Of a stretch of 64,000 nucleotides of DNA, positions 4,029-22,236 are shown one piece after another. The notes under the pieces were generated by a model. It worked only from the letters and a program-made list of their open reading frames with translations. It did not search any database and was not told the origin of the DNA. The DNA is from a virus, in IMG/VR virus record IMGVR_UViG_3300020183_000012, positions 64,001 to 128,000 of that record; one strand, written 5' to 3'. Numbering within the stretch: the stretch's first letter is position 1; every line of letters starts with the position of its first letter. The translations under genes were made by a program, and so were the position numbers.

Positions 4029-4649
4029 ATGTTTAATCCCATTGTTCGTCCGTCCGCTGTCTACAACGAGTCCACCGGGGAATACGATTGCTCGGTCACG
4101 AAGGATCAGGCGATCCTCGCCGCAGCCATCTCCTCCTGCTTTGGTTCAGGCGAGGCTGACAAGGCAATCATCGCCGCTTGCAAGCGTTCGTTTGAGCCGA
4201 ATCAGCAGTACCACTTCGATGCCAACATCCGCATCCGTGGGACGCTCAAGACGCAGAAGCCCCGCGTCTGCGCGGTCAAGGCGAAGGACAACTACAAGGC
4301 GGCTCTCATCGAACTCCTCAGCGATGCAGCCGTTCCTCAGTCGGTCAAGGACCGCATCCGCATCAAGTTCACCGCTGAGTCCGCTCGGCGTGATGGCTTC
4401 GACACCAAGACCATCCTCACATCGGTTGATCCCGCCGTGCGCGAGACAATCGAAGGCATGGACCGTTCGCTCCCCGAAGAGGTGACTTATCCGCCGTCCG
4501 TCAGCGGGACCGTCACTTGGGAGACTGTTGAAGTCCCCGTTGCCCGTTCGGAGCCTGAGCGCATCCCGGTCGGCACGGGAGGAAAGGCGATCACCAAGCG
4601 GAGCGATGAGGGCAAGACCTCGCCGCGCAAGAGCGTGAATGGTCGCTGA
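4029..4649 (+). CDS. hypothetical protein
   Basis: ORF with TAAGGA SD behind the promoter motif. Confidence 0.75.
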   Translation: MFNPIVRPSAVYNESTGEYDCSVTKDQAILAAAISSCFGSGEADKAIIAACKRSFEPNQQYHFDANIRIRGTLKTQKPRVCAVKAKDNYKAALIELLSDAAVPQSVKDRIRIKFTAESARRDGFDTKTILTSVDPAVRETIEGMDRSLPEEVTYPPSVSGTVTWETVEVPVARSEPERIPVGTGGKAITKRSDEGKTSPRKSVNGR

Positions 4650-4664
4650 GACAGACACCGCAAA

Positions 4665-4702
4665 CCCTCCCGGCATGGTTTTCTTTCGCCATGTCGGGAG
4701 GG
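4665..4702 (+). terminator. intergenic hairpin / terminator
   Basis: CCCTCCCGGCATGG...CCATGTCGGGAGGG inverted repeat. Confidence 0.55.
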
Positions 4703-4749
4703 AATCTTTCATCCCGTGAATAGGCTAATCGTGACACAAGGAGAACCCG

Positions 4750-5856: not shown

Positions 5857-5986
5857 TAACAACAAAAATTACATCGCAGAAATAAAGTAATATAAACAGG
5901 AAAGCGTTTGACTATTCTTGGCAAATGGCTATCCTAAATTGAAGTTAGGCGTTCCTAACAGATCCTTACCCCGGAGATTCAACACA

Positions 5987-6634
5987 ATGGCTAGAACTGC
6001 TACTCCCACCGTGACCGATTTCTCGGTCGAAACCATCCGCAAGTTCGCTCTGTCGAACAAGTCGTTCATCTCTGCCATCAACAAGCGGCGCAGGGAACTG
6101 ACGAGCCAACTCAGCGAGATCGACACGATGCTCGGCAACGAGGAAGAGGCTCCTAAAGGCAAGCCCGGTCGCAAGCCCGGTCGCAAGCCGGGTCGAAAGC
6201 CCGGTCGCAAGCCCGGTCGCCCCGCTGCGGTCAAGCGCGGTCGCCCTGCCAAGAAGAAGGCAGGAAAGGTTGGTCGCCCCCCGATGAAGAAGAAGCGGGC
6301 TTCGGCTACCGCTGCTCCGGCAACAGGTCGCGGTCGCGGTCGCCCGTCGAAGGGCAAGCACTCGCTCCGTGATGCCGTCCTGACCGTGATCCGCAACAAC
6401 GGCGGTCGCGTGGATGTCAGCGATATCATCAGCCACCTCAAGAGCGCGGGTTACGATGTGTCTGCCAAGACCATCAATGTGATGATCCAACACGCTCTCA
6501 GCGCACTCGCTAAGGACGGCATGATTGACCGTTCGGAGCGTGGCGTGGCGAAGGTCACCGCGAAGGGTTCCACCGCTACCGTGGTGGTCGAAGCGGCTGA
6601 TAACGCTGAGGAGTCCTCGGAAGTTGCCGCGTAA
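5987..6634 (+). CDS. basic histone-like / nucleoid-associated protein with (KPGR)n repeats and C-terminal winged helix
   Basis: N-terminal coiled coil, five tandem KPGR units, GRP AT-hook-like motifs, LRDAVLTVI...LKSAGY...HALSAL wHTH. Confidence 0.75.
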   Translation: MARTATPTVTDFSVETIRKFALSNKSFISAINKRRRELTSQLSEIDTMLGNEEEAPKGKPGRKPGRKPGRKPGRKPGRPAAVKRGRPAKKKAGKVGRPPMKKKRASATAAPATGRGRGRPSKGKHSLRDAVLTVIRNNGGRVDVSDIISHLKSAGYDVSAKTINVMIQHALSALAKDGMIDRSERGVAKVTAKGSTATVVVEAADNAEESSEVAA

Positions 6635-19197: not shown

Positions 19198-19242
19198 AGG
19201 GTCAGTTTAGGTTGGTTGAGGCTTGTTTAGATAAGGTATGAT
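19198..19242 (+). repeat. 5-nt periodic NN-GNY tract (9 units)
   Basis: ag-GGT ca-GTT ta-GGT tg-GTT ga-GGC tt-GTT ta-GAT aa-GGT at-GAT. Confidence 0.75.
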
Positions 19243-19269
19243 TTTTCATCGGGTGAATAAACTAATGGC

Positions 19270-19635
19270 ATGAGTCACCCTTACCATCACGCTCTGTCAA
19301 GTGTCAAGCGTTTCGGAGGCACTTGGAGCGATTACATTGAGATTCACGAATGGTTCGATCAGACGAAGGCTCTTATCCCTGATGTTCGTCATCGGGCAAT
19401 CCTTCATTCGTCTTTCGGAATCTTCCTGTGCCAACAGGTTTTCGGTGAGGTTCTTGTGCGGGATTCTGACGGAAAGCCCGTGCCTGTCCGTACCATTGCG
19501 GAGCAACACATTATTGAGGACATGGGATTTATCCCTACTCCTCAAGATTGGTTTGCGGGTATGCAGCCCGAGAAGTGGATGGCAAGAGGAGCAAAGCCTC
19601 TTTCCGCTGAAACAGAACAAGTTTTGGCTGACTAG
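19270..19635 (+). CDS. DUF6915 family protein
   Basis: MSHPYHHALSSVKRFGG...IHEWFD...RHRAILHSSFGIF...VRTIAEQHIIED. Confidence 0.75.
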   Translation: MSHPYHHALSSVKRFGGTWSDYIEIHEWFDQTKALIPDVRHRAILHSSFGIFLCQQVFGEVLVRDSDGKPVPVRTIAEQHIIEDMGFIPTPQDWFAGMQPEKWMARGAKPLSAETEQVLAD

Positions 19636-19645
19636 ACAATCTTAA

Positions 19646-19719
19646 GTTCCCGTGGCTCAGTTGGATAGAGCAGCCGCCTTCTAAGCGGCAGGTCGCTGGT
19701 TCGAGTCCAGCCGGGAACG
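19646..19719 (+). tRNA. tRNA-Arg(TCT)
   Basis: acceptor GTTCCCG/CGGGAAC, anticodon 19680-19682; no CCA. Confidence 0.95.
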
Positions 19720-19727
19720 CTTCTACG

Positions 19728-19753: not shown

Positions 19754-19944
19754 AACTAATCCGGGGAATCTGCATTATTTTGCTTGCCTATTTGGTCTAT
19801 TGGGCTATAGTTCCACCTCTGAAGAGATGATTCAAGGTGCATAGACTACATAGGTGAAAGTTGCATCCCGAGAATAGACTAATGGGGTAATAGTGCCGCA
19901 CCGAGTGGCACAACAAGTTGAGCATTCGCACAAGGATACAAATA

Positions 19945-20583
19945 ATGCCTGTTGCAAGTCCTATTGATACCGGAACACGCACCTTGACTTTCATCATCAA
20001 GGGAATCGCACCGTTGATGATGCACAACGGTCTGTTGGCTTCGCCCTTCTATTCGTATACCAAGCGTCTGAAGGAGATCACCAAGAAGCGCGGCAAGACC
20101 GAAGAGGATCATATTGAGGTGGCTAAGATTGAGTGGGAAGGCGGTCTTTACATGAGTAGCCGCGATGCGGATACTGGTCTTTGGTCTGAGGACTCGCATC
20201 CCATCATTCCCGCTGAGTGTCTTTACGCGACCCTTCTCGCGGGAGCAAAGGCTTTCAAAGGCGGGATGTCTTTCAAGGCAGGAGTGTTCATTACTCAATC
20301 GGCTCGTCTGCGCTACAAGGGAGACAACAAGATCAAGACTCTTGCTGACCTTCGTGGCAAAGATATTTTCATCGACTCCCGCCTCGTTGATGTAAACGGC
20401 AGCAAGGTGACGCGAACCCGCCCGATCTTCCACGATTGGTCGTGCGAGTTCAATGTTGAGTATGATCCGTCCGTTGTTGATGAAGCAGACCTTATCCGTT
20501 GGGTTCAAACGGGCGGTAGGCTCAAGGGTCTTTGCGAACTGCGTCCAACGATGGGTCGGTTCACCATTGAGTCTTACAAGTGA
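19945..20583 (+). CDS. stand-alone Cas7/RAMP-like RNA-binding protein
   Basis: RAMP-like motif order: N-terminal strand + IKGIAPLMMHN, PIIPAECLYATL (cf. IPGSSLKG), C-terminal Gly-rich loop GGRLKGLCELRPTMGRFTI; directly followed by a repeat array. Confidence 0.65.
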   Translation: MPVASPIDTGTRTLTFIIKGIAPLMMHNGLLASPFYSYTKRLKEITKKRGKTEEDHIEVAKIEWEGGLYMSSRDADTGLWSEDSHPIIPAECLYATLLAGAKAFKGGMSFKAGVFITQSARLRYKGDNKIKTLADLRGKDIFIDSRLVDVNGSKVTRTRPIFHDWSCEFNVEYDPSVVDEADLIRWVQTGGRLKGLCELRPTMGRFTIESYK

Positions 20584-20584
20584 T

Positions 20585-20921
20585 GCTCTCCTCTCTCCGC
20601 AGAAATGCGTAGAGAGGCTTTCTTATGGTCTGCTTTGGCAGGATACGGTTCGTTGCGCTCAGGAGTGGTCTGCTTCTCGCCTTCTACCGGGGAAACCCGG
20701 TTTGGAGGCTTTCTTTAGGTCGGATGCCCTCAGATTGGGCTAGTTTAGGTAGGGTGTGATGCGATGTGTTCCGCTTCTCGCCTTCTACCGGGGAAACCCG
20801 GTTTGGAGGCTTTCTTTAGTCTTGTTGGGGCATGATACGGTCAGGTTCGGTAAGGTCAGAAGAGGTATGCTTCTCGCCTTCTACCGGGGAAACCCGGTTT
20901 GAAGGCTTTCGTGGGTACGGC
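20585..20921 (+). repeat. array of hairpin repeats separating 5-nt periodic tracts (candidate guide-RNA array)
   Basis: 42-nt repeat GCTTCTCGCCTTCTACCGGGGAAACCCGGTTTG(G/A)AGGCTTTC at 20672-20713, 20773-20814, 20869-20910; structural variant at 20585-20622; intervening tracts of 10, 12 and 11 NN-GNY pentamers. Confidence 0.9.
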
Positions 20922-20992
20922 AAAGTTGCATCCGTTGAATAAAGTAGTCTTGCCCAAGTGGGCAATCTCAATCATCTAGGAGCAGAACAACA

Positions 20993-22003
20993 ATGGCACA
21001 TGGAATTAAGAATCGTGATCGCGTCCTCATCGTTGGTGACCGTGGTTGGCACGGGTTGGGTCAGCAGATGGATTCGATCAGCATGACCGATCTCAAGGAG
21101 CAGTTCCCATACTCCTACGAGAAGGTTCCGATGTTCACCGCCGATGGCGTGGAAGTTGAAGGCTTCAAGGCTGTCATCACTACCGATGACAAGCAGAGCA
21201 ACGGTGTCGTGGGTGACACCTACGAGATCATCAACCTTGACGAGATGTTTGGTCTTGCTAACGATCTTGTTGTTGCTCACGGGACGGGTCGTGTTGTCAG
21301 CGCAGGAAGCCTTCACAACCGCGAGGACTTTTTCGTTGATCTCGGCATCGACCGCGAGTTCCGCAGCGGTGAGGATGTCAACAAGCCATTCATCGGTATC
21401 ACCAACAACTTCTGTGGTATGCGCCACTTCGTTGCGGGAGCGCACATGAACAGGATCGTCTGCGCCAATACTCTGAATCTCATGCTCCGCGAAGTCAAGG
21501 GTTCTCCTCGCGCCATCAAGATTCGTCACACTAAGGGTGCATGGAACCGACTCGCTGAGGCGAAGCGCATTCTCGGCATCACCCTTGCCGCGTTCGACAA
21601 GGCTGATGAGGAGATGCACCAAATGATCTCCAAGAAGATGACCGATGCAGAGATCGCTTCGTACTATGATGCCATCATGCCGATGACCAACATCCCGCCT
21701 CGCCGTGCAGACGAGAACGAGGAGCAGTATGAAGCCCGTGTTGAAACCATCGAACGCGCAAACCGCAAGGCTTCCCGTGTCCGTGCAGAGTGGAGCATGA
21801 CGCTTGACAACGAGCGCGGCGTTCTTGGTCAGGAGCCGAACCTTTGGCTTGCGATGAACTCCGTGACCAAGTGGGTTCAGCATGAGAATCAGGTGAAGAA
21901 CGAATCGACCAATCCCCTGATCCGTGGTTGGAGCAACCGTTTTGCAACGGGCTTCAAGATGACAAACGAAGCCCATGACGCAGCATTGTCTGTGCTTGGG
22001 TAA
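20993..22003 (+). CDS. DUF932 domain protein (phage/plasmid-like protein)
   Basis: GWHGLG, SAGSL, RIVCANTL, IRHT, NLWLAMNSVTKW motifs. Confidence 0.85.
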   Translation: MAHGIKNRDRVLIVGDRGWHGLGQQMDSISMTDLKEQFPYSYEKVPMFTADGVEVEGFKAVITTDDKQSNGVVGDTYEIINLDEMFGLANDLVVAHGTGRVVSAGSLHNREDFFVDLGIDREFRSGEDVNKPFIGITNNFCGMRHFVAGAHMNRIVCANTLNLMLREVKGSPRAIKIRHTKGAWNRLAEAKRILGITLAAFDKADEEMHQMISKKMTDAEIASYYDAIMPMTNIPPRRADENEEQYEARVETIERANRKASRVRAEWSMTLDNERGVLGQEPNLWLAMNSVTKWVQHENQVKNESTNPLIRGWSNRFATGFKMTNEAHDAALSVLG

Positions 22004-22011
22004 ACCGAACT

Positions 22012-22104
22012 AAGGTTAGGTATGGCGAGTCTAGGTATGCCCTGCCATTGTATGGTCTGTCAAGTTCAGTCCCCTTCACCGGAGAAATCCGGTGGAGGGG
22101 TTTT
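22012..22104 (+). repeat. orphan NN-GNY tract (12 units) plus array-like hairpin/terminator
   Basis: aa-GGT ta-GGT at-GGC ga-GTC ta-GGT at-GCC ct-GCC at-TGT at-GGT ct-GTC aa-GTT ca-GTC then CCCTTCACCGGA-GAAA-TCCGGTGGAGGG-GTTTT. Confidence 0.8.
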
Positions 22105-22122
22105 GCCGATAAACATAATGAC

Positions 22123-22193
22123 TGCCTTGTGGTGAAACGGTATCACGGGAGACTTTGGATCTCCTTTTCTTGGTTCAAATCCAAGCAGGGCAA
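22123..22193 (+). tRNA. tRNA-Gln(TTG)
   Basis: acceptor TGCCTTG/CAGGGCA, anticodon 22155-22157; no CCA. Confidence 0.9.
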
Positions 22194-22236
22194 ATCTTTC
22201 ATCCTGGAAATAAACTAATCGGACAAGGAGAACCGG

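Follow-up and report, generated by a model that had tools for sequence, protein, structure and literature searches.

What is a lone gene for a protein of the RAMP (repeat-associated mysterious protein) type, with hairpins and a five-base periodicity directly behind it, doing in the genome of a virus? The question is raised by the stretch of 64,000 nucleotides analyzed here (the window), which covers bases 64001 to 128000 of the 146,719-bp IMG/VR virus record IMGVR_UViG_3300020183_000012, a contig with an estimated completeness of 36% (CheckV). The gene, vipr, is an open reading frame (ORF) of 212 aa at positions 19945 to 20583 of the window (+ strand). Our answer is that the locus is very probably a VIPR system of an uncultivated phage, which itself is probably very large. 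Such systems are already known, having first been described in preprints of 2026, and the kind is not new; the unusual feature of this locus is that the second letter of the guide scaffold is free to vary. The name VIPR, given in the original prediction made from the sequence, was the correct one (bioRxiv 10.64898/2026.04.26.720920, 10.64898/2026.04.26.720927, and 10.64898/2026.10.15.759431).

A Vipr homolog and its period-5 guide tracts

The paper on the discovery of VIPR describes guide RNAs (vrRNAs) in which 9 to 16 units of a GGY scaffold and two variable bases (NN) are followed by a 3' tail; it also reports seven types, together with a 1-nt skip rule, vap genes, and DNA silencing (bioRxiv 10.64898/2026.04.26.720920). 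The 212-aa protein of the window belongs to no Pfam family that we could find. It matched the PDB entry 36pp_D, "SUSP1 Vipr protein," over residues 14 to 209 against 4 to 188 (phmmer; E, 3.5e-16), as well as phrog_4652 (E, 3.5e-43), and tblastn retrieved 131 phage records, Felix O1-type phages among them. Identity to the Vipr proteins of the Felix O1-type/SUSP1 phages was 27 to 28% over the full length (E, 1e-16). The AlphaFold2 model, built from 14 sequences, had a predicted local distance difference test score (pLDDT) of 92 and a predicted template modeling (TM) score (pTM) of 0.85. Foldseek against PDB gave 66 matches at an E value of <1e-3, the top ones being Csm3/Cas7 subunits of type III effectors (best E values of ca. 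1e-5, probability of 1.0, and TM score of ca. 0.5). The minimal RAMP fold is present in the model, with an RNA recognition motif (RRM) core, a G-loop (G190 to F206), and a thumb beta-hairpin (143 to 162) that carries R159. Both the full-length homology to the solved SUSP1 protein and the Csm3/Cas7-type model thus bear out the earlier claim of a lone RAMP protein, and the motifs listed at that time (H27-N28, R159-P160, and the loop G190 to F206) are all there.

The SUSP1 structure allows the residues to be compared one by one. By cryo-electron microscopy, one SUSP1 Vipr protomer sits on each repeat, reading the first scaffold base (G1) via H17 and D177, the second (G2) via R138 and W178, and the third (Y3) via R179, E71, and M72 (bioRxiv 10.64898/2026.04.26.720927). 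SUSP1 K33 is a DNA-backbone contact. In the alignment, H17, K33, E71, R138, and R179 are kept in the window protein as H27, K43, E91, R159, and R200, and E198 stands for D177; counted in this way, five of the six published RNA contacts (H17, D177, R138, W178, R179, and E71) are matched. The residue that stacks on G2, W178, is replaced by L199.

Behind vipr, the sequence parses in register into pentamers of two variable bases followed by a G, any base, and a pyrimidine (NN-GNY), which reproduces base for base the parse given in the original prediction. Three guide units follow one another on the + strand. The first, vrRNA1 (tract T1; 20625 to 20715), has 10 units (20625 to 20674), a tail hairpin (20679 to 20709), and a UUUCUU trailer; vrRNA2 (T2; 20716 to 20816) has 12 units (20716 to 20775), a tail hairpin (20780 to 20810), and the trailer; and vrRNA3 (T3; 20817 to 20915) has 11 units (20817 to 20871) and a tail hairpin (20876 to 20906). 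Units and tail together amount to ca. 95 to 100 nt in each of them. Two further tracts lie off the array, also on the + strand, namely vrRNA D (22012 to 22105), with 12 units (22012 to 22071) and a tail hairpin (22071 to 22100) followed by UUUU, and tract U (19198 to 19242), with 9 NN-GNY units, no hairpin tail, and a promoter motif directly after it. Tract U is a candidate tail-less or solo vrRNA. A weak stem over the start codon of the next gene (DUF6915) was considered as its tail and rejected, with no compensatory change in the related locus L008.

When both strands of the whole contig were scanned for at least 7 of 8 in-register NNGNY units, these five places were the only period-5 tracts, and each of the 20 block shuffles used as a control gave 0 or 1 scoring positions. 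Across the 54 units, G1 was a G in 52 (96%), and position 3 was a pyrimidine in the same number (96%; T in 41, C in 11, and A in 2). Base 2 was G in 25 units (46%), T in 12, A in 9, and C in 8, and the NN positions were near background composition (66% A+T). With 9 to 12 units and G2 in only 46% of them, the tracts conform to the broad form of the published guides and not to the strict one, 9 to 16 units on a GGY scaffold.

The hairpins form a family of their own. Near-identical repeats of ca. 47 nt that hold a hairpin begin at 20672, 20773, and 20869, and a variant with a GAAA loop, the leader hairpin (20590 to 20617, + strand; fold energy, -17.2 kcal/mol), stands directly 3' of the vipr stop codon and is followed by CUUUCUU. 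The leader is built like the tails, marks the 5' boundary of tract 1, and is also found 3' of the vipr stop codon in the related loci L008 and L014. The hairpin motif CCTTC..CCGGNGAAANCCGG occurs four times, against none in 100 shuffles, and the hairpin of D has the same design as the array tails, with compensatory changes (CCCTTCACCGGAGAAATCCGGTGGAGGG versus GCCTTCTACCGGGGAAACCCGGTTTGGAGGC). Ten copies were compared (leader, array tails, and D tails from the window, L005, L008, and L014), and a common structure emerged of one 12-bp stem, a G[AU]AA loop, and then the CUUUCUU trailer, with at least one double compensatory change in all 12 stem pairs. No convincing pseudoknot was seen in the tails, which was not a strong test, and a search against Rfam returned tRNAs only.

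Could these hairpins be ordinary intrinsic terminators or attenuators and the period-5 tracts a DNA-level or structural feature, with no RNA guidance at all? The hairpins are GC-rich and precede a U-rich run (CUUUCUU; GUUUUG after D), and each tract appears to come last in its transcription unit. However, a simple terminator scan did not call the hairpins, and the tracts are found only beside Vipr homologs, across very distant phages. For a scaffold with fixed G1 and Y3 and NN letters that are conserved between orthologs yet specific to each guide, there is no DNA-level explanation, and in SUSP1 an RNA built in this way has been proven to be a guide (bioRxiv 10.64898/2026.04.26.720920). The roles of terminator and guide, moreover, are not exclusive. 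We regard this alternative as highly improbable.

Selection on guides and scaffold among related loci

The close relatives of the locus (61 to 95% identity) are metagenomic and have in common the gene order DUF6915, vipr, array, DUF932, and guide D. Array content varies, with three guides in the window, one long tract in L008, and none behind vipr in L005; several relatives' contigs stop just 3' of vipr, as assemblies do at repeats. Tract U is found in the same position in L005, L008, and L014. For a broader comparison, 80 IMG/VR loci with Vipr proteins 33 to 44% identical were taken. Period-5 tracts stood beside vipr in nearly all of ca. 70 other loci, so that the homolog check suggested by the original prediction came out in its favor.

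Some details of these relatives deserve mention. Locus L005, with 84% Vipr identity, has only 90 nt behind vipr (4640 to 4729), promoter motif included, and keeps both U and D; in its guide D, a 1-nt insertion puts the first four units out of register. In L008, the D region (5951 to 6240) is expanded; its period-5 tracts cover ca. 240 nt, fall into several registers, and share one terminal tail.

The guides kept in L005 provide a measure of selection at each position of the pentamer. Between the window and L005, NN differed at 2 of 18 positions in U and at 1 of 24 in D, where scaffold position 2 differed at 5 of 12. For U and D taken together, this amounts to 3 changes in 42 NN positions (7%), 8 in 21 second scaffold bases (38%), and none in 21 G1 positions, the rates for NN and base 2 being significantly different (Fisher P value of 0.004). 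For comparison, vipr differed at 13%, 8.5%, and 46.5% of first, second, and third codon positions, respectively, a pattern indicating that the gene is under purifying selection. Set against these codon rates, NN is under purifying selection about as strong as that on second codon positions, and base 2 is near neutral. Given that base 2 drifts while NN is conserved, base 2 is unlikely to read the target. The purifying selection on its NN letters also suggests that U, in spite of having no tail, may be a working guide.

At a greater distance, the picture is that of a changing code on a constant scaffold. Compared with L008, NN differed at about 45 to 50% in U and T3, and G1 was kept (0 to 1 changes per comparison); the 5' half of the NN code of T3 is common to an L008 array guide. 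Hypervariable NN positions with G1 kept between guide pairs are as predicted for a guide code driven by its targets.

The latitude at base 2 fits the presence of Leu199 in place of the stacking Trp, and the same residue covaries with base 2 across loci. Where the W178 position is Trp or Tyr, the median share of G at base 2 was 0.88, and where it is Phe, 0.94; where it is Leu, the median was 0.54 to 0.55 (Mann-Whitney P value of 1.4e-4), with G at base 2 in about 45 to 65% in the Leu loci. The Leu state appears in three places of the tree, namely the window clade (100% support), L020, beside a Tyr locus, and L029, nested within a 99%-supported Trp clade and with more than 100 units, and base 2 is relaxed in all three lineages. 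These are few independent events, placed on a quick IQ-TREE maximum likelihood tree and scored with automatic tract calling. Our tentative proposal, in which we place somewhat less than even confidence, is that the residue at the W178 position may set base 2, that the window clade is a natural G-N-Y subclass, and that tract U is perhaps working. A distant Vipr homolog with Arg at this position, in L046 (3100 to 3940), is accompanied by long G-T-Y/NN arrays; of 83 units, 84% have T as the second scaffold base, and a tRNA-like sequence, judged by eye, is embedded in the array.

Whether the relaxed scaffold is new, as the original prediction had supposed it might be, has a divided answer. Repeats of "related consensus" (NNNGG, YNNNG, and NNNNG) are already in print (bioRxiv 10.64898/2026.04.26.720920), and G-N-Y is not among the variants named in the text of that preprint. 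Novelty had also been suggested for the dispersed units, and here the suggestion fails, since dispersed and solo vrRNAs have been published (bioRxiv 10.64898/2026.10.15.759431).

Targets, missing genes, and genomic setting

According to the original prediction, the NN strings would spell a non-contiguous target, and none was found above chance in scans that, for the sequence collections, took exact matches only; this makes the negative a weak one. In the own contig, skips of 0 to 3 gave no match of at least 80% except the guides' own sequences, to which skip 3 (applied to the contig only) was likewise confined, in agreement with the published absence of self-targeting (bioRxiv 10.64898/2026.04.26.720920). 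Skips of 0 to 2 gave no match in 511 kb of related loci, including the relatives' vipr genes and vrRNAs. As exact 1-nt-skip patterns, T2 (11 units) and T3 each had 0 matches in viral contigs and 0 in genomes, D (12 units) had none in either viral contigs or metagenomes, and T1 had 0 in viral contigs. In metagenomes T1 had two matches, one in an RHS-repeat gene and the other in a gene for asparagine synthase; the two have no relation to each other and so are at chance level, as are two unrelated viral matches of U. The 8-unit core of D that is conserved with L005 had at least 118 matches, as chance predicts. Among them, about 15 related viral contigs of ca. 32% GC (L192:10907-10941 and ca. 14 further loci) matched D at 22 of 24 NN positions; we judged this match to be chance, since it lies in the AT-rich, repetitive linker of a 235-aa ORF, rich in N, T, and K, and the skip base falls on the first codon position instead of the wobble position.

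The empty target search bears on the possibility that the guides of the window clade follow another reading rule, either with base 2 pairing with the target or with a different skip length. No exact or significant 1-nt-skip target was found in the viral, metagenome, and genome collections, and the base-2 pocket is altered by L199; both speak for such a rule. On the other hand, exact-only scans of collections are insensitive, and skips 0 and 2 yielded no match either, whether in the contig or in related loci. Moreover, base 2 drifts near neutrality and NN is conserved in the orthologous guides, and the residues of the skip-base pocket and backbone, K43 and the thumb R159, are kept. A different rule seems unlikely to us, and we continue with the locus as a VIPR system that would probably follow the published reading rule.

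Several features weigh against that identification. Base 2 is not kept as G and W178 is replaced, so that the published GGY recognition is not fully reproduced; tract U has no recognizable tail; a U-rich run stands 3' of each tail hairpin, making a terminator role also possible; and a natural target above chance level was not found. In addition, the locus has no vap1, in SUSP1-type loci a gene of ca. 145 to 155 aa that overlaps the end of vipr. Neither BLAST nor a hidden Markov model (HMM) built from 15 such proteins, which matched 36 ORFs in other loci, detected it in the 146.7-kb contig, ca. 36% of the genome (best E, 0.42). Vap genes are typical, yet stand-alone vipr has been reported (bioRxiv 10.64898/2026.04.26.720920).

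Much of this could also be read as decay, that is, as the relic of a VIPR system whose guides are no longer bound properly after the loss of the Trp and the erosion of GGY. The share of G2 (46%), the change of W178 to Leu, the missing vap1 and target, and the loss in L005 of the whole array behind vipr all point that way. A relic, however, hardly agrees with an intact vipr under purifying selection, with G1 and Y3 strictly kept (52 of 54 units each), with NN letters in U and D that change as slowly as second codon positions, or with a tail structure maintained through compensatory changes. Leu and a relaxed G2 are also found in two further lineages, one of them with arrays of more than 100 units. 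We consider decay improbable and keep to the identification of a VIPR system.

The setting of the locus is viral, both by its IMG/VR record and by its neighbors, which are small phage genes, tRNAs, and the DUF6915 and DUF932 genes. The DUF6915 gene (19270 to 19635, + strand; 121 aa; Pfam PF21866; E, 1.2e-44) is syntenic in the relatives; it is a syntenic neighbor with no shown link to VIPR. Between it and the vipr promoter lies a tRNA-Arg(TCT) gene (19646 to 19720, + strand; ARAGORN and Rfam). The DUF932 gene (20993 to 22003, + strand; 336 aa; Pfam PF06067; E, 1.7e-29) is located between the array and D. We rejected it as an accessory gene because it is a neighbor of vipr only in the window's own clade; no solved relative and no relevant literature were found. 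A tRNA-Gln gene (22123 to 22193) begins 18 nt downstream of the D tail; tRNA processing could help to define the ends of the guide RNAs.

A promoter-like motif, TT[TG]CATC-N5-RAATAAACTA, which is also the direct repeat found at the locus, has 28 copies in the contig, all of them on the + strand, and each lies 5 to 30 nt ahead of a ribosome-binding site and the ATG with which a small gene starts. The copies extend from 9807 to 34319 of the window, with one further copy ca. 13.7 kb ahead of the window start. Four belong to the locus. One (TTTCATC-N5-GAATAAACTA; 19244 to 19264, + strand) stands right after U and upstream of the DUF6915 gene, one (TTGCATCCCGAGAATAGACTA; 19861 to 19881, + strand) is predicted to drive vipr and the array, one (20926 to 20946, + strand) is the predicted promoter of the DUF932 gene together with vrRNA D, and the fourth is at 22197 (+ strand). 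From this placement, the array, D, and U would each come last in a transcription unit.

The window from position 1 to ca. 40000 (ca. 52 to 104 kb of the contig) belongs to an island of ca. 50 kb with ca. 50% GC in a phage contig of ca. 31% GC, with low-GC DNA on either side and gradual borders. The VIPR locus falls within this island, as do all seven tRNA genes detected in the window and 27 of the 28 promoter motifs. The island may have been acquired as a module, or it may represent an early region under different regulation. A clue to the host was sought in the helicase and CobT-like proteins, which gave distant matches only, to phages of varied hosts (Bacteroides, Cellulophaga, Tunturiibacter, Pseudomonas, Klebsiella, and others).

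Putative mechanism and place among known systems

From the promoter motifs and by homology with SUSP1 VIPR, a working model of the locus can be drawn. The promoter at 19861 would produce vipr, the leader hairpin, and the three guide units in one transcript, and that at 20926 the DUF932 gene with guide D in the 3' end; the transcription unit before these would end in the tail-less U. Transcripts would be cut to RNAs of ca. 95 to 100 nt, the 3' end of each guide being capped by the hairpin tail. One Vipr protomer would occupy each pentamer and present its two N bases, holding G1 by H27 and E198 and Y3 by R200 and E91, with base 2 left unspecified in the window clade. The filament would then read double-stranded DNA as NN-x-NN-x, according to the 1-nt skip rule, and silence the transcription of a competing mobile element. 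A pentamer filament with NN as a gapped guide, as the original prediction had imagined it, agrees with the mechanism published for SUSP1.

The closest known counterpart is type II VIPR (Escherichia phage SUSP1 and a Pseudomonas fulva prophage; PDB 36pp), with a homologous Vipr and pentamer guides of 9 to 12 units with variable NN. Both have RNAs of ca. 100 nt (inferred here) with a constant, structured 3' tail and a three-guide array behind coding genes, with guides elsewhere in the locus, and both are phage-borne, without cas1/cas2 and without self-targets. They differ in the scaffold (G-N-Y here and G-G-Y there), in the Leu for W178 and the Glu for D177, and in the tail, which is a GNRA-capped 12-bp hairpin here and a pseudoknot in the SUSP1 clade (bioRxiv 10.64898/2026.04.26.720920). 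The gene arrangement is also different; there is no overlapping vap1 here, the array is directly 3' of vipr, and the DUF932 gene precedes the fourth guide.

Satellites and solo vrRNAs have been described as well (bioRxiv 10.64898/2026.10.15.759431). Tracts U and D resemble the solo or orphan vrRNAs of F5 satellites and VIPR-null SUSP1-family phages in being single and located off the main array, and L005 keeps U and D without an array, as in the solo vrRNA cases (bioRxiv 10.64898/2026.10.15.759431). Unlike in the solo vrRNA phages, vipr is kept here, U has no recognizable tail, and there is no match to the relatives' vipr or vrRNAs.

More distantly, the RRM/RAMP fold, G-loop, and thumb are common to Vipr and the Cas7/Csm3 subunits of class 1 effectors (PDB 7uzw and 6ifl), and both proteins polymerize on a guide with fixed periodicity, as far as the window protein may be judged by analogy. 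Identity is only ca. 12 to 14%, and the periodicity is 5 nt here against 6 nt in Cas7/Csm3. CRISPR repeats, other cas genes, and an adaptation module are lacking, the guide being genome-encoded with its own built-in scaffold. Along the same lines, we found no CRISPR repeat-spacer array, no cas1/cas2, of which the original prediction had already seen none nearby, and no further cas genes; the repeats at this locus carry the 5-nt scaffold within them.

VIPR is a newly described form of RNA-guided DNA recognition with a gapped code, and the locus provides a further example of it, in a large phage known only from uncultivated material. It also contributes evolutionary evidence, separate from the experiments in print, that within the guide it is NN on which selection acts, with the adjacent scaffold base drifting near neutrality. 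The covariation of the G-loop residue with base 2 would help to establish how much change the scaffold allows and to improve vrRNA callers that assume GGY. If the proposal of a G-N-Y subclass is true, a strict GG[CT]NN caller under-detects the guides of the window clade, and the residue at the W178 position would offer a route to re-coding the guide scaffold.

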